Source: an uncultured Candidatus Saccharibacteria bacterium
GTDB taxonomy: Bacteria; Patescibacteriota; Minisyncoccia; Phycocordibacterales; UBA9973
Length of the DNA stretch: 64,000 bases
Assembly (NCBI GenBank): GCA_964544225.1
Contig: CAZIZK010000002.1
Coordinates: 2,557-66,556, forward strand
Direction of reading: 5' to 3'
Position 1 is the first letter of the stretch. Every line of letters starts with the position of its first letter. The notes beneath the pieces were generated by a model. That model saw only the letters and a list, made by a program, of their open reading frames with translations, searched no databases and was not told the origin of the DNA. The position numbers and the translations under genes were made by a program. Positions 4,363 through 54,686 of this stretch are shown in pieces.

Positions 4363-6777
4363 ATGGAGCAATCAATCCCGTACAACAAAGATATAACATA
4401 TTTTGGTAAAACTAACTTTCGCAACCATGCGCAAGTTTTCGGCATAAAGAGAAAGGACCGCCGCCAACATATGTACGTGTTAGGTAAGTCAGGTACAGGT
4501 AAGTCTGTGCTTCTTTCGAATCTCATAGTTCAGAATATTCAAAATGGTGAGGGTCTGTGTGTGGTGGATCCGCACGGCGAATTGGTAGAGGAAGTCCTAC
4601 ACCTCATACCACCGCATCGTGTAAAAGACGTTATATATTTCAACCCAGCCGACACTGACTATCATGTGGGCTTCAATGTGCTACAACTCGATGACCCTAA
4701 ATACAAGCACTTGGTGGCATCAGGACTCATGGGAATATTCACAAAGATCTGGGCCAATGCATGGAGTAGCCGTATGGAATACATCCTCAACAACGCTATC
4801 CTCGCACTACTAGACACTCCTGGTACTACACTCCTCGGTATCCCACGTATGCTTGTGGACAAGGACTATCGCCAGATGATCATCGGTAACCTGAAGGACC
4901 CGGTGGTAAAAGCATTTTGGATTCATGAATACGAACAATGGCGTGACCAGTTCCGTAACGAAGCTATCGCCCCGATCCAGAACAAAGTGGGTCAGTTCCT
5001 ATCCACTTCTATCATCCGTAATGTGGTAGGTCAACCAAAAAGTACTATAGATATTTTTGAAATCATGAATACTGGGAAGATATTCCTAGTGAACGTATCA
5101 AAGGGTCGTATTGGTGAGGACAACTCGGCACTTCTCGGAGGTATGCTTATTACAAAGATCCAGCTTGCAGCCATGGAGCGCGTGCGTATACCTGAGAACG
5201 AACGCCGAGACTTCTACCTATATGTGGACGAGTTCCAGAACTTTGCTACCGATTCATTTGCCAACATTTTGTCCGAGGCTCGTAAATACCGCCTGAACCT
5301 AATCATTGCTCACCAATATACTGCCCAGCTGGAGAATAAAGATGGCAGTAAAGTCCGTGACGCAGTATTTGGTAACGTGGGTACTATGATCATATTCCGT
5401 GTTGGTGCCGATGATGCCGACTTCCTGGAGAAGGAGTTCGAGCCTGAATTCATGGCCCAAGACTTGGTGAACTTGCCTAACTTCCATGTGTATCTAAAGC
5501 TCATGATCGACGGTGTTACTAGCCGGCCATTCTCCGCAAGTACTTTGCCACCAATACATGTGGATGCTGACGCAAATGTAAAAGATCAAATTATAGCGTC
5601 TTCACGAGCTTTGTACACAAAAAAGCGCGAAGATGTAGAGAACGAGATACTTCGTTGGAGTGGTATGTTGCAGTCTGATGGTCAGAATGGGGCAGGTGCC
5701 CAAGAGGGCAAGTTCCCAGCAGAATGTAGCGAATGTAAGAAGAGCATAATGGTGCCTTTTGAGCCTATAGCAGGCAAGCCAATATATTGTAAGGATTGTT
5801 TAGCCAAGATAAAGGCTGGCGAGTTGAAGCCCGCACACGGATTCATAACACCAAAGGCTGTTCGCCAAGAGGCTGCAGCATCGGCGCCTCTTGCAGCACT
5901 AGGTATCGAGTTTACTGGCACAAGTGGCAAGGTAAATAGTTCTTTCGCTCGCAATGTTGTAAACAATCATGATGCAAAGCCTAACGCTGGAGTAAATAAT
6001 AATTTCAAGAAGCCGAATACTTTCAACAAAGCTCCAAATGCAGTCAACACCCCAAATGCAAAACCTTTTATAAAACCAAAACCAACACCATCACCACTTT
6101 TAAAAGATTTGTTACAAAAAGTAACAAGTGAAAAGGATATCCTCGATAAGAAGGATGCTCCTGTATCTGAAGTAAAGAAGGTAATACCACCACCAATATC
6201 ATTGTCTGAGTTAAAGAAGTCTGAACCTGCAAAATCTGATACAAATAAGGCCCCTGTTGTGAATAATATAAATATCAACAATAAGCCTACACCTACTATA
6301 GCTAAAGCTCCAGTAATACCAGCTAAAGAGGCTACTCCAGAAAAGATGAATTCACTAAAGGATATGCTAGCCAACATATCTGCAAAAGAAAAAGTGGAAG
6401 AAAAGGTTGTTGAAATAAAAAAAGAAGAAGTAAAAGTAGAAGTAAAGCCCGAAGTTAAACCAGAAGTAAAGGTTCCAATTCCGACACCAATCATGAGTCC
6501 ACAAGTACCAAAACCAATACTTCCTGCTCAAGCTATACAAATTCCACCTAGTATTCCAAAACCACCTGAGGCAATAAAAAAGGTAGAGGCAGTAGTTAAG
6601 ATAGATGAAGTAAAAGAAGTAAAGCCTGAAGTAAAAACAGAGGAGAATAAAGCTAAAGTAGAAGACACAACACCAGATACACAAAACACTGATACTACAA
6701 ATCAAAATCAAAATTGGCAAAAAAGGGTCGCAAATAAAGAAGTACCAGAAGAGGTCCTCCGCAAGGTATTAGAATAA
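4363..6777 (+). CDS. VirD4/TraD-like coupling-protein-family ATPase with a C-terminal zinc-ribbon and a long low-complexity K/P/E/V-rich tail
   Basis: Walker A GKSGTGKS, CVVDPHGE, Walker B LYVDEFQN. The first 400 aa align with the 279..1760 product. C-x2-C...C-x2-C ribbon (CSECKK...CKDC), then KPEVK-type repeats. Confidence 0.8.
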   Translation: MEQSIPYNKDITYFGKTNFRNHAQVFGIKRKDRRQHMYVLGKSGTGKSVLLSNLIVQNIQNGEGLCVVDPHGELVEEVLHLIPPHRVKDVIYFNPADTDYHVGFNVLQLDDPKYKHLVASGLMGIFTKIWANAWSSRMEYILNNAILALLDTPGTTLLGIPRMLVDKDYRQMIIGNLKDPVVKAFWIHEYEQWRDQFRNEAIAPIQNKVGQFLSTSIIRNVVGQPKSTIDIFEIMNTGKIFLVNVSKGRIGEDNSALLGGMLITKIQLAAMERVRIPENERRDFYLYVDEFQNFATDSFANILSEARKYRLNLIIAHQYTAQLENKDGSKVRDAVFGNVGTMIIFRVGADDADFLEKEFEPEFMAQDLVNLPNFHVYLKLMIDGVTSRPFSASTLPPIHVDADANVKDQIIASSRALYTKKREDVENEILRWSGMLQSDGQNGAGAQEGKFPAECSECKKSIMVPFEPIAGKPIYCKDCLAKIKAGELKPAHGFITPKAVRQEAAASAPLAALGIEFTGTSGKVNSSFARNVVNNHDAKPNAGVNNNFKKPNTFNKAPNAVNTPNAKPFIKPKPTPSPLLKDLLQKVTSEKDILDKKDAPVSEVKKVIPPPISLSELKKSEPAKSDTNKAPVVNNININNKPTPTIAKAPVIPAKEATPEKMNSLKDMLANISAKEKVEEKVVEIKKEEVKVEVKPEVKPEVKVPIPTPIMSPQVPKPILPAQAIQIPPSIPKPPEAIKKVEAVVKIDEVKEVKPEVKTEENKAKVEDTTPDTQNTDTTNQNQNWQKRVANKEVPEEVLRKVLE

Positions 6778-16588: not shown

Positions 16589-18859
16589 TTATTTCTTGTT
16601 ATTTACCAGATTGTCGTCGAGTTTATGAGGGTTGTGGTTCTTACACATCTTGTTGGAACAACGCTCGGGGATTGTCTTTGTACCTTCCATCATTAATGAT
16701 CCACAGTATTTACATATATTGCCTGTCGGCTTTGCCTTTATAGCGTTCTTGCAGTCTGGGTAGTTAGAACAAGAATAGAATATTCCAAATCGGCCACGGC
16801 GCTCCATCATGAGGCCCTTTTTACAAGTAGGGCATTGTACATCTGTCATCTTCTTTTTCTTTTCCTCTTCATCCTCCTCTATATATTTACACTTTGGATA
16901 GCGTGAACATGATATGAATGAGCCAAATTTACCTTCGCGTAGTACTAGGTGGCCGAGTTCTGGTACCTTTGTACTCTTGCGCTTCTTTCTGCCATTTTTA
17001 TCTAGGCCAGAGTCTTCCACAGCGGTGCCACACTTTGGACAAGGGCGGCCTAGGTCCTTTGGACCTTCGAGTTCTTTACCTTCTAGATTCCTCGCACCGA
17101 CACAGTCTGGGTAGTTAGCACATGAATAGAACTTGCCATTGCGAGCCAATTTTACAATCATGTTGCCACCACACTTTGGGCACACCATATCATCTGGTGC
17201 GTCACCCATGTTTGTGGCTTTAGCCAATTTGTCCTTTTCCTTCAATTCCTTTTGAAATGGAAGATAGAAATCTTTCAAAGTCTTTTCATATTCGCGTTCA
17301 CCATTAGAAATATCATCGAGCTTGTCCTCCATGTCGGCAGTAAATGTATCAGAAATATATTCAGCAAAGTTATCTTCCAAGAAGCTCGATACCACATCGC
17401 CAGTATCAGTAGGGAAAAGTGTACGGCCTTCTTTGTTTACATAACCGCGCTCTTCTATAGTACGCATAATAGACGCGTATGTAGATGGGCGGCCAATACC
17501 ACGAGCTTCCAACTCTTTCACAAGGCCTGCTTCTGTATAGCGACCAGGTGGAGTAGTTGCCTTCTCAGTATCTTTTAGTTCGATCAATTTCAATTCTGCG
17601 CCTACTTGCATCTCGGGTAGTTCCACATCTTCACCGCGAGCATCTGTGTCGCAGGCAAGCCAGCCCGGGAACAATACTCGGGATCCATTGGCAGTAAAGT
17701 CAGGGATAGAACCTTCTTTTATATTTGCCACTATCTTTGTCTTCATTAATTTTGCATCAGACATCTGGCTCGACACTACACGCTCCCATATCAGGCGATA
17801 CAGTCTCTTCTGTTCTTCATTATTACCAACACTTATCAAGTCAACATGAGTTGGGCGGATGGCTTCGTGGGCTTCTTGGGCGTTCTTTGACTTTGTCTTG
17901 TATGAATGAACTTCGGCATATTCACTACCATACTTCTTCTCGATAACTTTTATTATCTGATCCTGTGCAACTTTTGAAATATTTGTACTGTCGGTACGCA
18001 TGTATGTAATATGACCAGCTTCGTACAACTTCTGTGCGACTTGCATAGTGCGTGAAGGGGAGAAGCCGAGGCGTGATGATGCCACCTGTTGTAGCGTACT
18101 TGTAGTAAATGGCGCACGGGGTGAACGCTTCTGCTCGCTCGCTTTCAGGTCAGTGATATACCACTTATTACTATTGCCAAGTTCCAATATCTTGTCGACA
18201 ACTTTTTTGTCGCGAGGTTCCTCGACACATGACAATGTTAATTTGTCTTTTTTGTTTGTTTCGAATAACCCTTCGAGTACCCAGTATTGTTCTGGTACGA
18301 ATGCACGGATCTCGCGCTCGCGTTCCATGATGATACGTAGTGCAGGGGACTGCACACGGCCAGCACTCAAACCATAGCGCACCTTCTTCCATATTATTCC
18401 TGACAAATCATAACCCACTAGGCGGTCCAATACACGGCGAGCTTCTTGAGCACGACGTAGATCGGTGTCGATCTTCCTCGGTTCCTTCAATGCTTCCTCT
18501 ACTGCTTCCTTTGTAATCTCGTGGAAAGTCACACGCTTTATAGGGGCCTTCACCTTCTTATCACTTTTCAATAGTTCTTCGATATGCCAAGCGATGGCTT
18601 CACCTTCGCGGTCCGGGTCGGTTGCAAGCATTATTTCCTTTGCACCTTCAGCTAAGTGTTGAAGTTCGCTAACCACTTTTTCTTTGCCTTTTGATATTTC
18701 GTAATGCGGAATAAAGCCACCGGGTATGTCGATAGCTTTCTTGTTAGACTTTGGCAAGTCACGCACGTGACCTACAGACGCACGCACAGTATATGCACCG
18801 TCCAGATACTTCTCTATAGTCTTTGCTTTACTTGGTGATTCTACGATTAACAACTTCAT
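16589..18859 (-). CDS. topA: DNA topoisomerase I with C-terminal zinc ribbons
   Basis: TOPRIM domain (MKLLIVESPSKAKTI), the conserved topo IA motif RTDS with the catalytic Tyr in its expected context, and multiple C-x2-C...C-x2-C ribbons. Confidence 0.95.
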   Translation of the reverse strand: MKLLIVESPSKAKTIEKYLDGAYTVRASVGHVRDLPKSNKKAIDIPGGFIPHYEISKGKEKVVSELQHLAEGAKEIMLATDPDREGEAIAWHIEELLKSDKKVKAPIKRVTFHEITKEAVEEALKEPRKIDTDLRRAQEARRVLDRLVGYDLSGIIWKKVRYGLSAGRVQSPALRIIMEREREIRAFVPEQYWVLEGLFETNKKDKLTLSCVEEPRDKKVVDKILELGNSNKWYITDLKASEQKRSPRAPFTTSTLQQVASSRLGFSPSRTMQVAQKLYEAGHITYMRTDSTNISKVAQDQIIKVIEKKYGSEYAEVHSYKTKSKNAQEAHEAIRPTHVDLISVGNNEEQKRLYRLIWERVVSSQMSDAKLMKTKIVANIKEGSIPDFTANGSRVLFPGWLACDTDARGEDVELPEMQVGAELKLIELKDTEKATTPPGRYTEAGLVKELEARGIGRPSTYASIMRTIEERGYVNKEGRTLFPTDTGDVVSSFLEDNFAEYISDTFTADMEDKLDDISNGEREYEKTLKDFYLPFQKELKEKDKLAKATNMGDAPDDMVCPKCGGNMIVKLARNGKFYSCANYPDCVGARNLEGKELEGPKDLGRPCPKCGTAVEDSGLDKNGRKKRKSTKVPELGHLVLREGKFGSFISCSRYPKCKYIEEDEEEKKKKMTDVQCPTCKKGLMMERRGRFGIFYSCSNYPDCKNAIKAKPTGNICKYCGSLMMEGTKTIPERCSNKMCKNHNPHKLDDNLVNNKK

Positions 18860-18980
18860 CCCGTTAGAAGTAGAGAATCTTTAGATTCTCGTACATAACT
18901 TAAATTAATAAAATCAAAATATTACGATTATTTGAATATAATTCCCGTAGCTTGAATAACATATATGACTTCTAACGGGA
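18860..18980 (-). repeat. Structured leader repeat, copy 1 (12-bp closing stem CCCGTTAGAAGT/ACTTCTAACGGG abutting the topA ATG)
   Basis: Perfect 12-bp inverted repeat encloses about 97 nt, including hairpin GAGAATC-TAAA-GATTCTC. The 3' arm ends exactly at the start codon. ATGAAT lies at the distal end. Confidence 0.7.
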
Positions 18981-19076
18981 TTCATATCTGCCCAGTATTA
19001 CACGAAACATAATTTTTTTGCAAATTAAATGACCGATGCGTATAAATACGACACCGGCCATTTTGTGAAATTTGTC

Positions 19077-19568
19077 CTACTGAACCTCGTAAGTTCTATA
19101 GGCTAAAATGCTATCTTTTTTTATTAATTCTCTAATTTTAGGATTGCATTTTATAACAAGCTTAGAACAATGATTATACAAATAATCCTGTAAATCATTT
19201 TCTGTTTTAAAAAAAGTTCCACTAGTTCTATTTGTGTCTGACATCACGAATTCAATAATCGGGTTTTTTGCTGTATCGTTTCTTATCTCGAATATTGAAA
19301 AATCATCAGGTGTAAAATAATTTACCAAGGTGTCTTTTCTAAAGACCCATTTGAAATAGAACTTACTCCTACGATATTTCTTGTCATATCCTAATATGTG
19401 GTCTGAATCAATGGACATCAAGGGGAATGTTTGAGAAGAGAGTTTGTATTTTTTCTCATATTCTTTACCCCTGTTTATTCCTTCTTGAAATGCAAACTGG
19501 TCACAAGACACAACCAGCAAACTAATAAAAATGATAGATAAATAATAGTAATTTTTCATAACTGACAA
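19077..19568 (-). CDS. Putative lipoprotein, unknown function
   Basis: Signal peptide with lipobox LLVVSC. 163 aa. Confidence 0.55.
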   Translation of the reverse strand: MSVMKNYYYLSIIFISLLVVSCDQFAFQEGINRGKEYEKKYKLSSQTFPLMSIDSDHILGYDKKYRRSKFYFKWVFRKDTLVNYFTPDDFSIFEIRNDTAKNPIIEFVMSDTNRTSGTFFKTENDLQDYLYNHCSKLVIKCNPKIRELIKKDSILAYRTYEVQ

Positions 19569-19746
19569 TTTTAATTTTTTATTAGTCTATAATATAAAAT
19601 AGCACTTGTCAAGTTCTCCTTATTTCCCCATACTCTTCCCTTATTAAATCTTTTGCAAATTTCACCTTATGTAATTAAGGACTTTTTACTATTGACTTTT
19701 TAGTATAAATATTGTAATTTTGGTTTAAAATAATATTAATTTAATA

Positions 19747-20520
19747 ATGAGTAATTCAATTAATGCTGCTTTCGTAGTTGAGCACGCAAGAAGTAAAACA
19801 AAAGGCAGAGGACCTTCTCTTGGTTTTATGGGAATTAAAAACCCCAAAAAAGCTTTAGAAAAGGCTACTTTTTTCTACAACCTGATACAGAACCTAATAG
19901 ACTCAAAGCCTCACAAGGAAAAAAGTGAAATCAGATTTCGAGAATTCAAAGATGAAGATTTTGCCAAGATGAGTCCTTTTGATAATTGCTTCGTAAGAGT
20001 AAAAAATCTGGGAGGAGAGTTCAGATATGGCCAACTTGATTTTTACTTTGTTACCGAGAATGGAAAAATCATTGATGCTAATTTTTTCTTTGAAAATGAA
20101 AAATCTATGAAAGACAGGGATATTGAGTATGATTTCAAAGTTCGATACGGGTATAGATATGATTTGGGGGATCTAAAAAATGATGTAGAAAGTATTTGTT
20201 CTTACATGCAATCAGTTCATAGAGAAGAACTAGTTTATATCATTTTGGATTTTCCTCATTTTATGGAAACATCTGTTCTCTGGCTGTCTGATTTTAAGCG
20301 GTTGTCGTTCTCTGAATCTCACTTTTCAAGCATTCCTGCTATTGAAAAAATAGTTGATGACATCTCAAGAGACCGAATCAGGGATGAAAAAGAACAACAA
20401 AAACTTCATGCCCGGAGGGATGCAAAAATAGCTGAACTCACCAAAAATGGGGACAGAGTATTCATGTGTCCTTCCTGCGGAAGAATTAGTGGCTCAAGCT
20501 CAGGGCATTACTGTGCCTAA
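19747..20520 (+). CDS. Hypothetical protein with a C-terminal C-x2-C...C zinc-ribbon
   Basis: 257 aa ending FMCPSCGRISGSSSGHYCA. Bracketed by a duplicated dprA 3' end. Confidence 0.55.
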   Translation: MSNSINAAFVVEHARSKTKGRGPSLGFMGIKNPKKALEKATFFYNLIQNLIDSKPHKEKSEIRFREFKDEDFAKMSPFDNCFVRVKNLGGEFRYGQLDFYFVTENGKIIDANFFFENEKSMKDRDIEYDFKVRYGYRYDLGDLKNDVESICSYMQSVHREELVYIILDFPHFMETSVLWLSDFKRLSFSESHFSSIPAIEKIVDDISRDRIRDEKEQQKLHARRDAKIAELTKNGDRVFMCPSCGRISGSSSGHYCA

Positions 20521-20550
20521 GTAAGAGATTCAAAATCAAAACAATTATAA

Positions 20551-20589
20551 AAGCTTATTATCTCAAAAGGATAGTAAGCTTATTTTTTT
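20551..20589. terminator. Rho-independent terminator (AAGCTTATTATC..GATAGTAAGCTT plus T-run)
   Basis: 12-bp stem with one G-U pair and a 7-nt loop, followed by T7. Lies between convergent genes. Confidence 0.5.
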
Positions 20590-21451
20590 ATATCCTCCTT
20601 ATCTCCCCATACTCTTCTTTAATCAAATCTTTTATTTCCATTATGGAAAGAAGAGCGCCGGCGCGCGAGGCATCCATGCCACTGGCACGGATCAATTCAT
20701 CACGAGGCATTGGTTCGAGAAGCAGATCTATGATCTTCATTTCATCTTTACCACAGTCGGCATATTTCTCTTTATCTGTTTGAAGTGGCTTGTCTATTGC
20801 AAAGCCGAGTGCATCGAGCAATTCATCGCTATTGGTGACTGGTGTGGCACCTTGGCGTATCAGGTTGTTGGTACCTTTTGAATTTGGGGAGAAGGCGGAC
20901 CCTGGTACAACCAATACATCACGATTGTAGTCCAGGGCCATGCGTGCAGTGATAAGTGTGCCCGACTTTTCTTGGGCTTCTATTATTAGTACCGCTTTGG
21001 ACAATCCTGCCATCAGGCGGTTGCGCTGAGGGAATGAATATAATAATGACTTTTCATCGGGTAACATTTCAGAAAGTAGGCAACCACCAGCATCGACTAT
21101 TTCTTGGGCGAGTTTTATATTGGACCGTGGGTACAGAGCCGAATTGTCCAGGCCCGAGCCTGGCATAGAAAGTGTGATCAATCCATTTTTCAATGCTGCA
21201 CGGTGGGCGATAGTGTCGATACCGAGTGCCAGGCCCGACACTATTACAATAGGGTAACCTTTTAATCCGGCGATCAACTTCTCGCATATTTCTTTGCCAT
21301 ACGAGGTAAAGTTTCGTGAACCGACAACAGCTAGGTAGACATAATCCTCTGGAGGCAATTCACCCCTGCGAAAAAGTTGTTTAGGAGGTTGTGGAATCTC
21401 GAGCAGAGGCTTTGGAAATTCCTCCTCGTTTAATTTAAAAATATCTTCCAT
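20588..21451 (-). CDS. dprA: DNA processing protein A (Smf)
   Basis: DprA Rossmann-like core (LAVVGSRNFTSYG...VIVSGLALGIDTIAHRAAL). 287 aa. Confidence 0.85.
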   Translation of the reverse strand: MEDIFKLNEEEFPKPLLEIPQPPKQLFRRGELPPEDYVYLAVVGSRNFTSYGKEICEKLIAGLKGYPIVIVSGLALGIDTIAHRAALKNGLITLSMPGSGLDNSALYPRSNIKLAQEIVDAGGCLLSEMLPDEKSLLYSFPQRNRLMAGLSKAVLIIEAQEKSGTLITARMALDYNRDVLVVPGSAFSPNSKGTNNLIRQGATPVTNSDELLDALGFAIDKPLQTDKEKYADCGKDEMKIIDLLLEPMPRDELIRASGMDASRAGALLSIMEIKDLIKEEYGEIRRI

Positions 21452-21573
21452 CCCGTTAGAGATAGGTAATCTTTAGATTACCGTACATAAATTAAATAAT
21501 AATATCAAAATTGAAAGTAATCTTTTAAAATAATCACCATAAGAAATACAAACATATATAATCTCTAACGGGA
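21452..21573 (-). repeat. Structured leader repeat, copy 2 (closing stem CCCGTTAGAGAT/ATCTCTAACGGG abutting the dprA ATG)
   Basis: Same architecture as copy 1, with compensatory changes in the stem and in the inner hairpin (GGTAATC-TAAA-GATTACC). ATGGAT lies at the distal end. Confidence 0.7.
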
Positions 21574-21626
21574 TCCATATTCAATTCGTATTTGTTTATT
21601 ATACCATTTTTGGTTATACTGTCTGT

Positions 21627-22934
21627 ATGTTAGACATCAAATTCATTCGTGAAAATACAGATATAGTAAAGGCAGGAGTTGCAAAGAAGAACTCGAGCGT
21701 CGATATCGACGCCCTTATAAAGCTCGACGACCAGAGGCTAGAGGCTCTAAAGAGGACCGAGGTTCTACGTGCCGAGCAGAACCGTATGAATGGGTCTATT
21801 TCTGTCGAGAAGGATGCATCTGTCCGCGCACAGATGATTGAAGAGATGCGCCTAGTAAAAGAAGATTTCAAAAAAGAAGAGGAGAGTCTAAAGGATATCA
21901 TGCAACAGTGGCAGGGTATGATGCTAAAGATCCCGAATATTCCATCTGTCGACACTCCAGAAGGTCCAGACGAAAGTGGCAACCAAGTTATCCGTCAGTG
22001 GGGGGAGAAGCCACAGTTCAGCTTTACTCCAAAGGAACATTTCGAAATAGGGCGTGCATTGGGCCTTATAGATACCGAGACAGCTGCCGAGGTAGCATCT
22101 TCACGTTACTCATATCTAAAGGGTGACTTGGTTATGATGCAGTTCGCACTGATCCAAATGTGTTTAAATATTTTAACCAACAAAGAAACTCTACAGAAGA
22201 TAGCAACTGAAGCCGGCGTGTCTATCGATGTAGACGCTTTTATGCCAGTGATCCCACCAGTATTTATCCGCCCACTAGTTCAGGTAAAGATGGCGCGCAT
22301 GATGGCACCCGAGGACCACTACATGTTCCCGAACGATGACCTGATGCTCATCGGTAGTGCTGAACATACACTAGGTTCAATGCATATGAATAAAATATTT
22401 GAAGAGAGTGAGTTGCCAATACGTTATGCTGGGTACTCTACTGCATTTCGTCGCGAGGCTGGTACTGCAGGTCGTGATACAAATGGCATATTGCGCCAGC
22501 ACCAGTTCGACAAGTTGGAGATGGAAGTATTCTCTCTTCCAGAGAACTCTATCCAAGAGCAGAACTTCCTCGTAGCTATCCAGGAACATGTATTGAAGAC
22601 TCTGAACTTGCCATACCAGGTGATATCAGTATGTAGTGGTGACATGGGCTTTCCAGATACACGCCAGATCGATATAGAAACATGGATGCCAGGTCAGAAC
22701 CTATACCGTGAGACTCATAGTGCCGACTCTACCGGAGGATTCCAATCACGCAGGCTCAATACTCGTGTGCGCCGTGCAGATGGCAAAATCGAGCCCGTAC
22801 ATATGAATGATGCAACAGTTGTGGCAATAGGCCGTACACTAATAGGTATTATAGAGAACTATCAACAAGAAGACGGCAGTATCCGCGTACCAGAAGCTTT
22901 GAAGAACTACCTAGGTAAAGACGTTATTAAATAA
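21627..22934 (+). CDS. serS: Seryl-tRNA synthetase
   Basis: N-terminal coiled-coil arm plus class II motifs (FRREAGTAGRDTNGILRQHQFDKLE). 435 aa. Confidence 0.95.
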   Translation: MLDIKFIRENTDIVKAGVAKKNSSVDIDALIKLDDQRLEALKRTEVLRAEQNRMNGSISVEKDASVRAQMIEEMRLVKEDFKKEEESLKDIMQQWQGMMLKIPNIPSVDTPEGPDESGNQVIRQWGEKPQFSFTPKEHFEIGRALGLIDTETAAEVASSRYSYLKGDLVMMQFALIQMCLNILTNKETLQKIATEAGVSIDVDAFMPVIPPVFIRPLVQVKMARMMAPEDHYMFPNDDLMLIGSAEHTLGSMHMNKIFEESELPIRYAGYSTAFRREAGTAGRDTNGILRQHQFDKLEMEVFSLPENSIQEQNFLVAIQEHVLKTLNLPYQVISVCSGDMGFPDTRQIDIETWMPGQNLYRETHSADSTGGFQSRRLNTRVRRADGKIEPVHMNDATVVAIGRTLIGIIENYQQEDGSIRVPEALKNYLGKDVIK

Positions 22935-22943
22935 TATTTTAAT

Positions 22944-23819
22944 ATGGCCAAAGCTAAAAGCTCGCTCGTTACATCTCCACGTATAGAGGAAATCAAACGC
23001 CGAAAGAAGAGGCGTATTCGTTTTGCTATACTTTTCTATTCCGTATCTTTTATCGTACTGGTTGTTTTGTTTACACTCGTGTCTCGTATACCAAAACTAC
23101 ATATTAAAAATATTGAAGTGAACGGCACACATATAGTAGACAGCACCCAGGTAATAGACTATACAAATAGCCAGATAAGTGGGCGCTATTTATATTTGTT
23201 CGATAAGAAGAATGCTTTCATTTACCCAAATAATAAAATACAGAAGGACCTGGTAAAGAAGTTCCCACGAATCAATAATATCGACATATCGTTGCGAGGC
23301 TTCCATACTATTGTTATAGATATCACCGAGCGAACTGGTTCGTATCTATGGTGTGGGGCAAGTATTCCAGAAGTCGTAAGTGATGCGGGGGACAATTGTT
23401 ACTTTGTAAATTCCGATGGAAAAGTTTTCGACCAGGCGCCATACTTCTCGGGTAATGTTTACTTCAAGTTTTATATACCTATCGACACTGTCGATGATGT
23501 TTTTAATAAGCAAGTTTTAGATCAACCAACTTTCCAGAAAGTGATATCATTTACCGATGGGTTGGAGGCACTGGGCGTGCATGCTGTGTCAGTGGTTATG
23601 AATAACCCTGCTGAATATGCATTCCATCTAGATCGCAAGAGTAATATTGCAGAACCTGTAATATATTTCAATAGTGAGAATGATTTAAATAAAATATTTC
23701 AGAATTTCTCATCGGCCATGAGTAAAGACGAGTTTAGAAATCAGATAAATACAAAATATGATGTTTTGCAATATATTGACCTAAGGTTTAATAATAAAGT
23801 TTTATATAAATTCCGCTAA
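22944..23819 (+). CDS. FtsQ/DivIB-like cell division protein (POTRA domain)
   Basis: Basic cytoplasmic N-terminus, single TM, POTRA-like IKNIEVNGTHIVDSTQVIDY. 291 aa. Confidence 0.55.
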   Translation: MAKAKSSLVTSPRIEEIKRRKKRRIRFAILFYSVSFIVLVVLFTLVSRIPKLHIKNIEVNGTHIVDSTQVIDYTNSQISGRYLYLFDKKNAFIYPNNKIQKDLVKKFPRINNIDISLRGFHTIVIDITERTGSYLWCGASIPEVVSDAGDNCYFVNSDGKVFDQAPYFSGNVYFKFYIPIDTVDDVFNKQVLDQPTFQKVISFTDGLEALGVHAVSVVMNNPAEYAFHLDRKSNIAEPVIYFNSENDLNKIFQNFSSAMSKDEFRNQINTKYDVLQYIDLRFNNKVLYKFR

Positions 23820-23824
23820 TGAAT

Positions 23825-23943
23825 CCCGTTAGAAGCCGCGGTCGCAAGTAAATAAATATTAATTATGATACAAGATAAAATTTTAATTTATAAATATAAT
23901 ACAGAATGTCGTGATTTTTTGATCGCGATCTGCTTCTAACGGG
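23825..23943 (+). repeat. Structured leader repeat, copy 3 (closing stem CCCGTTAGAAGC/GCTTCTAACGGG abutting the dus ATG)
   Basis: 12-bp perfect inverted repeat enclosing about 95 nt. The 3' arm ends at ATG 23944. ATGAAT at 23819-23824 overlaps the upstream TAA stop (TAATGAAT). Confidence 0.7.
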
Positions 23944-25077
23944 ATGAATAATTTCTGGCAAAATCTTCCAAAGCCTTTTATGGCACTTGCCCCTATGGCT
24001 GACGTTACCGACCCGGCATTTCGACGTATCATAGCAAAGTATGGCAAGCCCGATGTTACCTGGACCGAGTTCGTATCTGCCGACGGCTTGATGAGTGCAG
24101 GTAGGGAAGTATTGAAGAGGGACCTAGAGTATAGCGAGGTGGAACGGCCGATAGTTGCTCAACTCTTTTCCTCGCACCCGGATCGGATGCGTGGCGCAGC
24201 GAAGCTGTGCGCCGAGCTCGGCTTTGATGGTATCGATATAAACATGGGATGTCCGGATCGTAGTATAGAGAAGCAGGGCGCCGGCGCCGCCATGATCAAG
24301 ACTCCAGAGATAGCCGCGCAGATTATCCAAGCAGTGAAAGACGGTATAGCAGATGCGGGCAAGGATATCCCCGTATCAGTGAAGACTCGAGTAGGGTACA
24401 ACCAAGTTCAGATAAAAGAGTGGATACCATTCATCCTTTCACAGAATATTGATGCCCTGACAGTGCATTCAAGAACCAGGAAGGAAATGTCCAAAGTTCC
24501 AGCGCATTGGGAATATATAAAAGAAGTGGTAAAGATCCGCGACAAGATGGGTATAAAAACAAAGATATTGGGTAATGGTGATGTACGCGATATTGCCCAT
24601 GCCAGACAATTGGCAAGTGAGTCTGGTTGTGATGGTGTAATGATCGGCCGCGCAATATTTGGTAACCCGTGGTTGTTTGGAAAGGGAGCTTCTTCTCGTT
24701 CTGAATATATTCCTTCCAAAGACACGAATAATTTTCTGGTGAAAATTTTCTCTTCTCGCGCCAGAAGCATGGTGAAGGGCCTTTGGCAGAAACATATTCT
24801 TCACTCGAAGAAGCAAGACGACTCACATAAATATTGGCTACATGTGGAAAATACTATTCCAGTAAAGGAACGGTTGGAAGTGATGGTAGAGCATATGGAA
24901 CTTTTTGATCAGTTACTCGGTGACATAAAGAACTTTGCCATTATGAAGAAGCACTTCAAGGCGTATGTAAATGGCTTCGAAGGTGCCAAAGAACTCCGCA
25001 TGAAGCTCATGGATTGTCACTCTGTACCCGAAGCCCGCACTATCGTTGCAGAATTTCTAAAGACATTTAAAATGTAA
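23944..25077 (+). CDS. dus: tRNA-dihydrouridine synthase
   Basis: Dus N-terminus LAPMADVTDPAFRR and TIM-barrel FMN site. 377 aa. Confidence 0.85.
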   Translation: MNNFWQNLPKPFMALAPMADVTDPAFRRIIAKYGKPDVTWTEFVSADGLMSAGREVLKRDLEYSEVERPIVAQLFSSHPDRMRGAAKLCAELGFDGIDINMGCPDRSIEKQGAGAAMIKTPEIAAQIIQAVKDGIADAGKDIPVSVKTRVGYNQVQIKEWIPFILSQNIDALTVHSRTRKEMSKVPAHWEYIKEVVKIRDKMGIKTKILGNGDVRDIAHARQLASESGCDGVMIGRAIFGNPWLFGKGASSRSEYIPSKDTNNFLVKIFSSRARSMVKGLWQKHILHSKKQDDSHKYWLHVENTIPVKERLEVMVEHMELFDQLLGDIKNFAIMKKHFKAYVNGFEGAKELRMKLMDCHSVPEARTIVAEFLKTFKM

Positions 25078-49296: not shown

Positions 49297-49368
49297 GGCC
49301 CTATCGTCTAACGGTTAGGACACATCCTTCTCAAGGATGGAATCAGAGTTCGATTCTCTGTAGGGTCA
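49297..49368 (+). tRNA. tRNA-Glu (anticodon CTC); the encoded 3' CCA is displaced by the inserted element
   Basis: Hand-folded. Acceptor GGCCCTA/TAGGGTC, D-arm TCGTCTAACGGTTAGGAC, anticodon stem CATCC/GGATG with loop TTCTCAA, T-arm CAGAG-TTCGATT-CTCTG, discriminator A. Confidence 0.85.
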
Positions 49369-50894
49369 CAAACTGAAACTGCATTCGCGGAAAGTCCCAA
49401 ATGCGGGCGCGCCGAAGGCGCGCTGTATGGAGAGAGCAGGAATTCTGCATTGCGGGCGCGGGCGAATTCGGTGGGCGGGCAAAATGAGACAGAGACGGAC
49501 TTGTCCCGCAATTGCGAGTTCGTTCCAATTTTTTTGAAATAGTCACGAATTTCAAAAAAATTATCCGTGGATTGCAATTGCGTGGCTTTTTTCATATCCA
49601 AAATCCATTCTCGCAAGGGTTCGACCCAATTCTTTTTCTCTGCTCGGGCGGAGTCCATTTTTTGAGAGAGAGACACTTTTTGTTTCAAAAGCTCGTTTTT
49701 CTTCAAAATATAGTTTTCTTTCGGTATATCGCCGTCTAAATATAAACTGACCAACTCATCGAGCTTTTGTTCTGTCTCTCGCTCATTTTCCTTAATCCGC
49801 CCGAGCATACTTCCCGACGAGGATTTTTCACTTTTGTCCCATTCGTCAACTTTAGATAACATATAATCTGTCCACTCGTCGGGAAGTGCGATTTGTTGAA
49901 GCCGTTCTTTTAATTGCAAGACGACTACATCTTCTCGCAAATATTTTTGGTCACAATTTCCTTTCTTTTTTGTACAACGATAATAGCGATACCGAACGCC
50001 CATTTTTCCCGTCGTCCATTGAGCAGTTATCATACTGTCGCATTCTCCGCAACGAAAAAGACCTGTGAAAGGAAAATTGTGACTTTTCTTTGATTTGCGA
50101 GGATGAGATCGTTCTTGCAATCTTTTCTGTACGGCTTCGAATAAATCGTGGGAAAGAATTGGCGCAAAGCTTCCGGGGAAATATTCGTTGTAATGTTTCG
50201 TTAATCCTAAATATGCTTTGTTGGATAGAATGCGAGATACGGAAGCTTTGCTAAGTGGCGTTCCATTTTTCTGACATACTCCATGATCCGCCAAAAACTT
50301 TCCCATAGATTCAAAACCGTGGTTACCTTTTACATATTCTTCAAAAGCGCGGACGATAATTTTAGATTTTACAATATCAGGTTCAATATTTCTCGTTTTC
50401 GGATTATTGAAATACCCAAACGGCGCTTTTGTTAGCCACTCACCACGGCGAAGTTTTTGGCGGATTCCACGCTCAACATTTTGCTTTAAATTGTCAGAAT
50501 AATATTTAGATTGTCCGAACGCCACTTGTAACATGAATAGCCCTTGCGGGGTTGGTTCAAACCAAAATGTCGGAAAACGCAAAGAAATGATTTTGGTCGT
50601 GTCTACGGCGTAGATGATGCGCCCTCCATCAACGCTATTTCTCGCTAGTCGGTCAGGATGCCAAGCCAGAATACCAGCACCATTCATATTTTCAATGCGG
50701 GACATCATCTCGCCAAATTTTTCACGACCAGGTTTCTTTGCGCTTTTCGACTCTGTAAATTCTCCAAGAATTTGCAGATTTTCTTTACGCGCGAATTCTC
50801 GTAACTCAAAAAGTTGTGCCTCGATAGACATGATTTGCTTGTCATCATCCTCGGTACTTTTTCGCGCGTATAGAAAATATTTTGGTTTGATCAT
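49308..50894 (-). CDS. Large serine recombinase (resolvase domain + recombinase domain + zinc ribbon)
   Basis: N-terminal catalytic region YARKSTEDD with the Ser nucleophile, recombinase domain, C-x2-C...C ribbon (CGECDS..YYRC), coiled-coil. The last roughly 60 codons run through the GC-rich repeat and the tRNA, so the true C-terminus is uncertain. Confidence 0.8.
   Translation of the reverse strand: MIKPKYFLYARKSTEDDDKQIMSIEAQLFELREFARKENLQILGEFTESKSAKKPGREKFGEMMSRIENMNGAGILAWHPDRLARNSVDGGRIIYAVDTTKIISLRFPTFWFEPTPQGLFMLQVAFGQSKYYSDNLKQNVERGIRQKLRRGEWLTKAPFGYFNNPKTRNIEPDIVKSKIIVRAFEEYVKGNHGFESMGKFLADHGVCQKNGTPLSKASVSRILSNKAYLGLTKHYNEYFPGSFAPILSHDLFEAVQKRLQERSHPRKSKKSHNFPFTGLFRCGECDSMITAQWTTGKMGVRYRYYRCTKKKGNCDQKYLREDVVVLQLKERLQQIALPDEWTDYMLSKVDEWDKSEKSSSGSMLGRIKENERETEQKLDELVSLYLDGDIPKENYILKKNELLKQKVSLSQKMDSARAEKKNWVEPLREWILDMKKATQLQSTDNFFEIRDYFKKIGTNSQLRDKSVSVSFCPPTEFARARNAEFLLSPYSAPSARPHLGLSANAVSVCDPTENRTLIPSLRRMCPNR
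49366..49480. repeat. IRa, a 115-bp GC-rich repeat and the P' arm of the integrated att site
   Basis: Exact reverse complement of 50953..51067. Confidence 0.85.
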
Positions 50895-52690: not shown

Positions 52691-54250
52691 TTGCTTTTTA
52701 TGGCTAGATACAATGTCTATAAAATTAAAGATGGGCAAGTTAATGAACTACAAACTCATTTAACCAAAGACCGTAAATATAAATTGGCGGATAGTTTTTC
52801 ATCGCATGGTTATCAAGTTTATACATATTTTGCTGGACCCGATTCAACCGATATGTGGTGGCTTGAACAATACGGACAACATTTTCCAGAACATACGGAC
52901 AAACATAATCAGATATATTCAGGTGCAGTTGTGGCAAATAATACAAGTAAAAAATCTGGCTACATAATCCCACTTGGAAAAACACATTTTTATATTCAAA
53001 ATTTTATTGAAATCAATTTTGGTTTGGAATTAGCGGAAAGGATTGCAGATGAAAAACAGACCAAAATGAAAAGTCTTAAAAATTTTGGCGGGAAAACCAG
53101 TAAGTCCCTTACAAGTTACATTTCAGGATCAAATCTATTATTCTCTAGTGGTGAATCTGCCGAATATTTAAAGCTGAAAGCTCAAAATAAAGAAGCATGG
53201 GGTGATTCATTTGTTCATTTTGGAAGTAGTGTTCAGTTTAATAGTCTTGAAATTGAGCCAGATGATTTGGGTGTTTTGCTCTCAAATATTGATTCTGCGG
53301 TGAAAGGAAAGAAAATATTACACCTTCCGTTAATGAAAGAAATAAAAGAGCCAGCATTGCTCGTACAGTTATATTCAAATCTTGCTGAAAAAATCTTAAA
53401 TGCGGATGACAGTATTGGTATTCTTGATTACGAAATATATGGAGTAGACTTTGTATTTTCTCAACAGACTCATATCAAACTTAAATGTGAGGGTGTTTAT
53501 TCCGACCAATTACCACAGCTTACATTAGAAAATATTATTACGTTCGTAAATGACAACAGTATAGACTTGAAAGATTGCTTGCAGAAAATAAAAGTCCAGT
53601 TTTTAGTGGACAGCGAATCAAAGTATACTGTTCCGCTATTACAACTTATTGAATATTACGGCGATGACAAGAGCTTTTTATATAAGGGTAAGTGGTTTTA
53701 TTTCAATGAAAGCTTTATTGAAAGTTTACATAATGCTCTGACTAAAGTCGAGGTTAGTGAATTTGGCAAAGCTTTTTCAGAAAGCGAATTTGAGGCTTGG
53801 CAAAAAACAAATAAAAATAAAGTAAATTACCGCGAGAGGTTTGTTATTGAGAAAATACACGAAGAATCAAAATTTGAAATTTTAGATCGAGATTTAGACT
53901 ATCTTGGTGTTGGAGATAAAAAATATCAACTTGAAATTGGTGATCTTTATGACCAAAAAAACAAAAGTTTATATGTCGTTAAAATTGGTAGTCCTAGTGA
54001 TTTTGGCTATGCTTTTGATCAGACATTTACCCTGCTTAGTAATGTAAAAGGTCAAAAGTATATTAGTACTGGCGGCAAAGAATATCCTATTGAAACAGTG
54101 AACGTTTTGATTATTTTTCGCACGAATAGAAAATTAAAGGATGCAACTGATACTAAGTCTTTAATTTTTGAAATAAAACTAAATGAATTACAAAAAATAG
54201 CTTTTGAAAAAAATATTAAATTGAATTTAACTTTTACAACTATACTTTAA
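52691..54250 (+). CDS. 519-aa soluble protein of unknown function, cargo gene 3 (possible sporadically distributed defence-island-type protein)
   Basis: Long uninterrupted ORF with AT-rich codon usage typical of the host. No motif that I can name with confidence. Confidence 0.55.
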   Translation: MLFMARYNVYKIKDGQVNELQTHLTKDRKYKLADSFSSHGYQVYTYFAGPDSTDMWWLEQYGQHFPEHTDKHNQIYSGAVVANNTSKKSGYIIPLGKTHFYIQNFIEINFGLELAERIADEKQTKMKSLKNFGGKTSKSLTSYISGSNLLFSSGESAEYLKLKAQNKEAWGDSFVHFGSSVQFNSLEIEPDDLGVLLSNIDSAVKGKKILHLPLMKEIKEPALLVQLYSNLAEKILNADDSIGILDYEIYGVDFVFSQQTHIKLKCEGVYSDQLPQLTLENIITFVNDNSIDLKDCLQKIKVQFLVDSESKYTVPLLQLIEYYGDDKSFLYKGKWFYFNESFIESLHNALTKVEVSEFGKAFSESEFEAWQKTNKNKVNYRERFVIEKIHEESKFEILDRDLDYLGVGDKKYQLEIGDLYDQKNKSLYVVKIGSPSDFGYAFDQTFTLLSNVKGQKYISTGGKEYPIETVNVLIIFRTNRKLKDATDTKSLIFEIKLNELQKIAFEKNIKLNLTFTTIL

Positions 54251-54686
54251 TTTCAAGGGAGCGTTCCCCATGCGCGCACGGGTGGGCAAAGTGTCCGCGT
54301 GTACTCACGCGGACAAAGGGGCAAGCATGTATTCCGCCTCGGGCATTTCCGCTATGAGCGTCCATGGCTAAAGGATGAGCGCCGAAGTAATATAACTCAC
54401 AGAAGTTTAGTAGCGAAAGCGACACCACGAACATAAATATGCAAAACGTAGAGTGGGGATGGCGAGGGCGGAACTTCTCGCGAGTACTCTCTGCGAGAAG
54501 TAGCCCGACCCGGGGAGAGGAAACTTCCTCTCCCCAAGAAGCGCGGGCTCCTGCCCGCACGTAGGCACCTAGGCGCGAGTAGCCATAGCGGAAATGCCCG
54601 AGGCGGATGCCGAGGGTGCATCCCCTTTAGACTTGGACAACCACATAGCAAAAGAAATGACCGAGAAAATTTTAATCCTGTTGTTT
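54251..54686. other. GC-rich, hairpin-dense non-coding segment (candidate structured RNA or recombination accessory region)
   Basis: Perfect hairpins CCGCGTG-TACT-CACGCGG and GAGAGGAA-AC-TTCCTCTC, a 23-bp long-range inverted repeat (54333-54355 with 54586-54608), and an imperfect CTTCTCGCGAG..CTCTGCGAGAAG palindrome. Its GC content far exceeds the surrounding genes. Confidence 0.3.

Follow-up and report, generated by a model that had tools for sequence, protein, structure and literature searches.

A mobile hairpin that has inserted itself at start codons, with the genes behind it reached by a stop-and-restart relay of translation, is the reading we favor (probability about 0.6) for three copies of one element in the window, i.e., the whole analyzed stretch of 64,000 nucleotides from an uncultured Candidatus Saccharibacteria bacterium. 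The element is a non-autonomous, MITE-like mobile hairpin of approximately 100-130 bp, with a small hairpin by its 3' arm. Judged from the comparison with orthologous sites, it is an insertion with a 4-5 bp target duplication, in which the left ATG is native and the right ATG is regenerated. Three signals in the wider family, namely an open reading frame through the element, internal ORFs and a phase preference, point to selection on translation through the element. As far as we have found, a hairpin MITE with its niche in start codons, which it regenerates, has not been reported previously.

The copy treated in the preliminary description (copy 2) lies before dprA at 21452-21573 on the minus strand, a strand that the description had not given. 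The element body is 122 nt long (TCCCGTTAGAGAT...ATCTCTAACGGG); read 5' to 3' on the minus strand, the order of the parts is TGGTATAAT, 19 nt, ATGGA, TCCCGTTAGAGAT, an AT-rich segment, ATCTCTAACGGG and ATGGAAGAT, and the junctions are ATGGA/TCCCG and CGGG/ATGGA. The left copy of the duplicated target ATGGA occupies 21574..21578 (minus strand), with the same ATGGA on the other side of the element. Its ATG (21578-21576) is the native dprA start codon, as shown by the single ATGGA at the empty sites of the relatives L123, L124, L125 and L127, and it now opens uORF1 (MDPVRDYICLYFLW; 21534..21578, minus strand), the start of which falls just outside the range originally given. The 5' arm of the closing stem, which is also the terminal inverted repeat TCCCGTTAGAGAT (21561..21573, minus strand; perfect inverted repeat I21), pairs with the 3' arm ATCTCTAACGGGA (21451..21463, minus strand) in both the MFE and the centroid folds. 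Between the arms lies an AT-rich, unconserved interior of approximately 95 nt; the copies diverge inside and keep their ends. The folds also contain a 3'-proximal 7-bp hairpin, GGTAATC-TAAA-GATTACC (21465..21482, minus strand), at a distance of 1 nt from the closing stem. An inner ATG at 21488 opens uORF2 (MYGNLKITYL; 21456..21488, minus strand), which stops at the TAA held in the 3' arm (21458-21456). This TAA is followed by CGGG and then by the dprA ATG at 21451, a gap of 4 nt, and the last base of the 3' arm is the A of this regenerated ATG. The gene itself (20588..21451, minus strand) encodes a protein of 287 aa (Pfam DNA_processg_A, 1.3e-67), and DprA homologues are nearly all of this length. 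A promoter-like site, CAGACA-16-TATAAT with an upstream TG, is located at 21598..21625 on the minus strand; it is also conserved in relatives, 6-9 nt upstream of the ATG.

Copy 1 precedes topA on the minus strand (18860..18985), with the left ATGAA at 18985-18981, the element at 18860-18980 and the topA ATG at 18859. ORF computation gave uORF1 MNPVRSHICYSSYGNYIQIIVIF at 18985-18914 and uORF2 MYENLKILYF at 18896-18864 (both minus strand). Copy 3 precedes dus (dihydrouridine synthase) on the plus strand (23819..23943), with the element at 23824-23943 and the dus ATG at 23944; its left ATGAA (23819-23823) overlaps the TAA of an upstream ftsQ-like gene (TAATG). Here uORF1, MNPVRSRGRK, was computed at 23819-23851 (plus strand), and a uORF2 of 24 codons, MIQDKILIYKYNTECRDFLIAICF (23865-23939, plus strand), ends at the TAA of the 3' arm. 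The uORFs, their peptides and the TAA 4 nt before the main ATG, as first described, were thus borne out at their coordinates in copies 1-3. The second uORF had been listed for copies 1 and 2 and was found in both; copy 3 has one as well. In each copy uORF2 ends at TAA-CGGG-ATG, and the gaps between uORF1 and uORF2 are 17, 45 and 13 nt in copies 1, 2 and 3, respectively. The closing arms are perfect 14-bp inverted repeats in all three, and the copies fold better than shuffled sequences (z = -3.7 to -4.4). The sequence CCCGTTAGAG, with at most one mismatch, has 8 matches in the window against 1.6 expected. The direct repeats track the first codons of each gene, being ATGAA/ATGAA at topA, ATGGA/ATGGA at dprA and ATGAAT/ATGAAT at dus. 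The position at start codons, three out of three against 0.42 expected, would not be significant for the window alone.

The origin of this arrangement was approached through syntenic contigs of relatives in which DprA is 81-92% identical. The dprA site is empty in L123, L124, L125 and L127, where it reads TGATATAAT, 8 or 9 nt and ATGGAAGAT, or TGATACAAT, 6 or 10 nt and ATGGA(A/G)GA; there is one ATGGA, and ATGGAAGAT comes straight after a leaderless-type promoter. The dus site is empty in L123 and L124 (TAATGAATAA(C/T)TTCTGG), where the dus start overlaps the ftsQ-like stop, and in L125 it reads TAACACATGAATAACTTCTGG, without the element. The topA site of L124 reads TGTAATACT, 7 nt and ATGAAGTTA, likewise without the element; topA in L123 holds the same element as copy 1, and in L125 a different element of approximately 190 nt with related ends (TCCCGTAGTAG.../...CTATCGGGA) sits at the very same ATGAA. 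The occupancy of one site therefore varies, from empty to filled to filled by another element. In L126 and L128, other, unrelated hairpin insertions without this geometry lie between the dprA promoter and the start. Since orthologous sites in close relatives are empty, the element is an insertion and not an evolved leader. Comparison of the filled with the empty sites shows that the insertion hit the first five bases of dprA, topA and dus, duplicating (A)TGRA. By the same comparison, the native start, at a leaderless-type promoter or at a TAATG junction, now opens a junk uORF that enters the 5' arm, and the regenerated start comes immediately after the 3' arm, its A or G being the last base of the stem.

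The preliminary description had read the region as a leader with conserved regulatory uORF peptides and a plausible translational on-switch. An evolved cis-regulatory leader of this kind, in which uORF peptides or their translation are conserved for regulation, is very unlikely. It would agree with the uORF geometry common to the three window copies and with the family-wide enrichment of ORFs that terminate at the junction, but the element is absent from orthologues at 81-92% protein identity, no ligand-like conserved core and no Rfam match were found, and the copies precede genes of 95 Pfam families. The on-switch, in the sense of regulation as opposed to mere expression rescue, is not supported. 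The uORF1s range from 6 to 42 codons and are unrelated after residue 5, and the peptides are unconserved beyond the residues that the repeats impose. The residues M(N/D)PVR are indeed present; however, they are a by-product of ATG-RA from the duplicated target and T-CCC-GTT-AGA from the terminal repeat. Similarly, MY(E/G)NLKI(L/T)Y(F/L) is found in copies 1 and 2 but corresponds to the 3' hairpin and the stem read in frame, and every amino acid difference within MY.NLKI.Y. coincides with a compensatory change of a base pair, either in the hairpin or in the closing stem. Target duplication, terminal repeat and hairpin pairing together therefore remove the apparent conservation of the peptides. 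A comparison of uORF frames in other copies had been proposed as a check: 24 of 67 copies are open in the frame of the old ATG (see below), and among the eight members of the window's own subfamily, its closest relatives, the uORF2 ATG occurs in only four although the hairpin is kept in all eight.

The family was collected from one genome per species with the pattern CCCGTTAGA-N80-110-TCTAACGGG, which gave at least 120 loci. This sample was ascertained by exact 9-mers in both arms, and the figures hold among the copies listed. At least 130 copies were found in Patescibacteria and other phyla, before unrelated genes; among the matches listed, the hosts are mostly Patescibacteria/CPR, with some Omnitrophota, Planctomycetota, Deltaproteobacteria and others. 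The ends of the element are (T/C)CCCGTTAGA-NNN and its complement, forming a stem of 13-14 bp. The length from arm end to arm end is 98-128 nt among the copies listed, and there is no conserved interior. Positions 2-5 of the flanking repeats agree in 78-84% of the 130 copies listed, and in 96-99% of the copies listed the base preceding CCCG is paired with the one that immediately follows CGGG. In at least six copies with a stem ending in C-G, the left-hand start codon is ATG and the right-hand one GTG. In the 127 copies listed for this comparison, stem positions 1 and 11-13 covary, being paired in 95-99% with 46-57 double changes each, and pairing ends after 13 bp. It follows from this covariation that hairpin formation itself is under selection, either as RNA or as single-stranded DNA. 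Minimal hairpins with the same stem were seen in non-CPR genomes. The small hairpin is gene-proximal, with a motif orientation of 40 against 3 among the copies listed, and the gene-proximal (3') side is the more structured one in 50 of the 67 start-codon copies listed, against 17. For eight members of the window's subfamily, RNAalifold showed compensatory changes at three of the seven pairs of the 3' hairpin. Tandem arrays with a common ATGAAT are present in L031 and L035, and arrays of more than 360 nt occur. Viral contigs gave three matches, none of which had the anatomy of the element.

Of 131 copies listed, 67 sit precisely at the opening codon of an ORF with 100 or more codons, 13 are within 12 nt of a start, 17 adjoin a stop codon and one is inside an open frame. 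Rare in-frame copies were observed in fpg (L019) and at the N-terminus of an NlpC/P60 protein (L037). A GTAAA class of copies follows stop codons and not start codons, and is flanked by the same repeats; GTAAA/GTAG flanks are confined to part of the non-CPR copies among those listed. Among the copies listed that are flanked by ATGRA, 34 of 38 are at starts, compared with 0.22 under a null composed of ATGRA preference plus loss of intragenic insertions (p = 7e-19). This difference rules out chance or selection alone as the cause of start-codon occupancy. The element may target the DNA of transcription starts or junctions; alternatively, its copies may persist at start codons since an imprecise deletion would be lethal at such a site. 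The genes that follow the copies are of unrelated kinds (95 Pfam families among the 58 proteins of the loci listed) and include those for topoisomerase, SecDF, ATP synthase, aminoacyl-tRNA synthetase and ThyX.

With respect to its class, the element is shorter than approximately 300 bp, non-coding and bounded by terminal inverted repeats, shows a duplication relative to the empty site, and occurs in dispersed, polymorphic copies, as MITEs do. No transposase or autonomous partner was found in the window and approximately 0.9 Mb of fetched loci, nor were arm pairs 0.3-3 kb apart; the label MITE therefore refers to anatomy and polymorphism. The inverted ends and the duplication look DDE-like, and the fixed orientation, the selection on the hairpin and the minimal non-CPR hairpins would suit a single-strand (HUH-type) mechanism. 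A riboswitch or a regulon leader was rejected on account of the unrelated downstream genes, the unconserved interior and the lack of an Rfam match: in Rfam 15 no family reached its gathering score, and the sole match with E<=10 was WsnRNA46, at 24.7 bits against a cutoff of 65.3 bits. An integron attC site was also rejected, as the placement of GTTAGA (5' arm) and TCTAAC (3' arm) gives a polarity opposite to R''/R' and the genes are housekeeping genes and not cassettes. A literature search did not find the arm sequence in a relevant context, the element itself, or a MITE that targets start codons.

Among the closest known elements are Correia/NEMIS of Neisseria, ERIC/IRU of enterobacteria and RUP of pneumococci, which are likewise non-coding, approximately 100-150 bp long, bounded by terminal inverted repeats and flanked by target duplications. 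They also occur in many dispersed copies that are co-transcribed with genes, and these known MITEs form long hairpins in the mRNAs and alter expression. However, they target TA or general intergenic DNA, whereas the present element sits in the start codon; none of them is reported to occupy a start codon and regenerate it with a stop 4 nt before it, their terminal sequences differ, and the hosts of the present element are Patescibacteria, Omnitrophota, Planctomycetota and Deltaproteobacteria. In a 2024 review, the term "start codon" is absent (PMC10969869). The Rickettsia palindromic elements (RPE) resemble the present family in being palindromic, mobile and tolerated in or at the edge of essential genes, with the frame surviving. 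An RPE, though, is translated within the host protein, whereas a separate upstream ORF and a regenerated start are the usual case here, and copies that share the frame of the gene are under-represented (11 of the 67 listed) and never open.

REP/REPIN-RAYT and palindromes derived from IS200/IS605 share with the element the selection on hairpin pairing and an orientation that is fixed with respect to an asymmetric target of 4-5 nt; the family further includes minimal hairpins built on the same stem and some copies with GTAA/GTAG beside it. The differences are that the ends of the present element pair with each other as true inverted repeats and that its flank varies with the target gene. The window copies are flanked by ATGAA or ATGGA without the GTAG tag of REP/REPIN, in which a GTAG or CGTC tag adjoins the palindrome. 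Palindromes of IS200/IS605 origin are without terminal inverted repeats, have a separate subterminal hairpin at either end and insert 3' of a fixed tetra- or pentanucleotide with no duplication. In contrast to these, the window copies have mutually pairing ends, one subterminal hairpin only and a flank that is the sequence of the target gene; same-site cleavage as in IS200/IS605 stays formally conceivable. Elements of the IS1380 family and those with piggyBac-type ends begin with CC(C) and make duplications of 4-5 bp. The likeness to these is one of resemblance only; the target of the present element is not TTAA, and no transposase gene was found in the loci examined.

How the genes might be expressed was approached through the reading frames. 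In 24 of the 67 start-codon copies listed, no stop codon interrupts the interior in the frame of the old ATG, whereas the other two frames are open in 6 and 6; shuffles gave an expectation of 6.1 +/- 2.3 (maximum 14 in 1000) and the reverse-complement control gave 10. The 24 open-frame copies form 24 separate clusters at 70% interior identity, which rules out one expanded subfamily behind the signal. The threshold of 70% was used for clustering, AT-rich sequences aligning at approximately 57% by chance, which makes 60% uninformative. In 20 of the 67 copies listed, uORF1 stops at the arm TAA or at an ATGA overlap. In the 47 other copies, internal ATG-ORFs ending at the arm TAA were found in 21, against 8.9 +/- 2.6 expected (maximum 18 in 500 shuffles), and ORFs ending at the TAA number 33 in the forward direction and 12 in the reverse complement among the copies listed. 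Altogether, 45 of the 67 start-codon copies listed carry an ATG-ORF overlapping the start or ending at the arm TAA, and 22 of the 67 are without an ATG-ORF ending at the junction; in 11 of the 67 the left start codon is missing. The distance from the old to the new start falls into mod-3 classes of 34:22:11 in the 67 copies listed (chi-square ~11.9, p ~0.003); the favored phase is the one that leads to the TAA, and no copy of the in-frame class is open.

The host context bears on the same question. An SD-like motif was found in 1 of 53 host genes, and 25 of 53 have a TAnnnT hexamer, often TGnTAnnnT, whose end lies 4-12 nt upstream of the start. These -10-like hexamers close to the ATG imply leaderless or near-leaderless mRNAs in the host. 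In 49 of the 67 copies listed, the left ATG still has a -10-like hexamer, or else an adjoining stop codon, upstream of it. Co-directional host junctions have 1-9 nt between stop and start in 15 of 35 cases, and with its TAA-N4-ATG the terminal repeat thus mimics a host operon junction. In the RNA fold of the subfamily, the new start comes after a stem in which its own first two bases are paired.

Since the host is essentially without Shine-Dalgarno sequences, we infer that the main ORF would be reached by a relay. Ribosomes would initiate at the old ATG, translate into the closing stem and melt it; left unmelted, the stem would bury the first two bases of the new start codon. Translation would terminate within the element or on reaching the TAA of the 3' arm, and restart would follow 4 nt downstream, in a manner resembling the operon junctions of the host. 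In the window copies, the predicted path leads from uORF1 over a gap of 13-45 nt to uORF2, which ends at the arm TAA, and from there to the gene. The geometry is that of termination-reinitiation junctions (UGAUG/TAATG-type, 70S rescanning), with a stop 4 nt before, or overlapping, an SD-less start; it is seen in all three window copies and in 45 of the 67 family copies listed. As in coupled junctions, upstream translation is predicted to open the structure that covers the start. The difference from known coupled junctions is that here a mobile element brings in the junction and the upstream ORF consists of junk, and we infer the dependence of the genes on it. The coupling at TAA-CGGG-ATG put forward in the preliminary description is accordingly supported STATISTICALLY by the open frames, the internal ORFs, the near absence of SD motifs and the 1-9 nt gaps at native operon junctions, but it does not extend to the 22 copies without such an ORF; as a mechanism, translational coupling is plausible, and its support is statistical. 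In plant pararetroviruses, ribosome-shunt leaders have a short 5' ORF and a large stable stem before the main start. They belong to eukaryotic scanning, however, and their sORF ends before the stem, whereas the present uORF reads into it. From the four of eight subfamily members that are without the uORF2 ATG, it follows that the relay is not the sole route of expression.

This incomplete uORF support makes RNase processing a serious rival or a complement to the relay. In such a scheme, an RNase III-like cut of the stack of stem and hairpin would free an mRNA that starts at or just before the main AUG, and the uORFs would be incidental; taken as the explanation in its own right, it is possible but rather unlikely. 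The closing stem stacked on the 3' hairpin amounts to a near-continuous helix of approximately 21-22 bp, the stem ends exactly at the start codon with the A or G of the start paired in nearly all copies listed, and the covarying hairpin is, as described, predominantly gene-proximal. Processing would recreate a leaderless mRNA in a host that uses leaderless-type promoters, and there are copies of the element, as well as other hairpin insertions, that are tolerated although a coupling uORF is missing. It has been reported that rnc is kept in at least 90% of CPR genomes (PMC12641178), and that RNase III cuts the inverted repeats of Correia elements in Neisseria mRNAs (PMC10969869). On the other hand, a stem of 13-14 bp alone is short for RNase III, and the frame-specific scarcity of stops, the excess of ORFs ending at the arm TAA and the mod-3 bias would not be predicted by processing.

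A purely parasitic element, with the gene served by direct internal initiation on breathing of the stem or by a promoter in the AT-rich interior, is unlikely. About one-third of the copies listed are without a coupling ORF, and retention at starts could follow from lethal imprecise deletion there and loss elsewhere. One weak promoter-like site does lie inside copy 2 (21528-21499, 9/12 matches), but promoter-like matches in the region are barely above those in shuffles (26 against 17.5 +/- 3.6), and no such site is conserved among the copies. Moreover, the old ATG still has its native promoter upstream, and the 3' arm is unlike a -10 element and does not have the key -10 bases. That the uORF statistics reflect something else, e.g., avoidance of Rho-type polarity, is equally improbable.

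In the mRNA, a stable stem-loop lies between two identical 5-nt sequences, an arrangement that would also fit ribosomal bypass from the old to the new ATG, as in T4 gene 60, or splicing of the hairpin from the RNA. Recoding or RNA removal of this sort is nevertheless highly improbable. The same repeats flank copies that are not at starts (the GTAAA class), and target duplication explains them. The codon after the left ATG is AAT or GAT and not a stop, take-off would have to occur at codon 1 and hence with no nascent peptide, and tandem arrays exceed 360 nt. For splicing, a ribozyme would need a longer and better conserved interior, and there is no Rfam match.

Beyond insertion and relay, it may tentatively be proposed, as a possibility and not an expectation, that the hairpin family homes to the genuine start codons of SD-less bacteria and is "self-healing" in translation. 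The sites would be leaderless transcription starts or stop/start junctions, where the repeat would bring both the A or G of the new start and the TAA-N4 junction, and the old start would drive ribosomes through the stem. If true, the element would be a translational counterpart (with RNase processing, a counterpart at the RNA level) of self-splicing introns and inteins. This would explain how insertions are tolerated in essential genes such as topA and those for SecDF, ATP synthase and aminoacyl-tRNA synthetases, and it would mean that, in streamlined genomes, selfish DNA can live within the five bases at which essential genes are most sensitive. For annotation, gene callers misplace starts at such sites, as with one DprA homologue of 312 aa instead of 287, and the element is a simple marker of strain-level variation in metagenomes. 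The family also offers a natural test bed for a question that the scarcity of cultures makes difficult, namely whether translation starts by leaderless initiation or by reinitiation in the SD-less and largely uncultured Patescibacteria.

Insertions at the start regions of topA and dprA were also found in relatives. Upstream of topA in the relative L125 (~6040-6241), there is a different hairpin element of ~190 nt, with the ends TCCCGTAGTAGAAAATGGC.../...GCCATTTTTCACTATCGGGA, which are related to those of the window element. It occupies exactly the same topA ATGAA, and the same start codon has been hit by an independent insertion. In the close relatives L126 and L128, two inverted-repeat insertions unrelated to the window element lie in the gap between the conserved dprA promoter and the dprA ATG; these have the arms AAAGATATTGAAAATTT.../...GAAAATTTCAATATCTTT (L126, ~880-975) and CTCAGAGTATAAATTAG.../...CTAATTTATATTCTGAG (L128, ~70-190). 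This promoter-to-start gap is a hot spot for insertions. The DprA of L126 is mis-called, at 312 aa.

When all gene starts in the window were considered, a Shine-Dalgarno motif was present in 1 of 53 genes. Many genes of the window have a -10 box of the TGnTAnnnT type ending 5-11 nt 5' of the ATG, as in leaderless-type starts, and the stop-to-start spacing at operon junctions is 1-9 nt.

The three window copies of the start-codon element all lie inside 5.1 kb of the 64 kb (18860-23943), and two or three copies within a few kb were also observed at several other loci (L025, L031, L057, L059, L067 and L117), a clustering that is consistent with local hopping. Tandem arrays, in which two or three successive elements are separated each time by an identical ATGAAT, were found at L031 (5899-6278) and L035 (7674-7895); the middle element of the former has the variant ends CCCGTA...TACGGG.

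The window contains further RNA and repeat features. On the plus strand, 51401-51526 matches the LOOT RNA family (RF03000) over its full length; the match scores 88.9 bits (E = 1.5e-15), and the gathering score of the family is 46.4. Nearby, the inverted-repeat search gave three separate pairs of 15-19 nt (I17, I8 and I9), which are crowded within ~600 nt (50286-50878) at the 5' end or upstream of a minus-strand ORF (49308-50894). The same search gave an inverted repeat with perfect arms of 24 nt at 54333-54356 and 54584-54607 (TCCGCCTCGGGCATTTCCGCTATG and complement). The arms are 227 nt apart, in the gap that follows an ORF ending at 54250, and the repeat has the appearance of a second MITE-like element, unrelated to the start-codon hairpin.

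GTAAA(C)...GTAAA flanks take the place of ATGRA in most copies from Omnitrophota, Planctomycetota and Deltaproteobacteria, a class drawn from L007, L011, L030, L036, L060, L066, L081, L091 and others. Several of these copies directly follow the TAA of the upstream gene, and the stop codon therefore lies inside the flanking repeat. Copies are also read within genes: in L019 (5741-5863), an RPE-like copy lies in frame between the N-terminal and H2TH domains of fpg/mutM, leaving an open ORF of 355 aa, and an NlpC/P60 protein of L037 has a copy close to its N-terminus that is read through in frame. Minimal, REP-like hairpins, with the same (A/C)CCCGTTAGA stem around a loop of just ~5-50 nt, were found at L080 (3407-3441), L110 (1264-1297), L099 (6015-6048), L088 (6509-6560) and L086 (1797-1870). 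They suggest that what moves or is recognised is the stem, and that the interior is optional.
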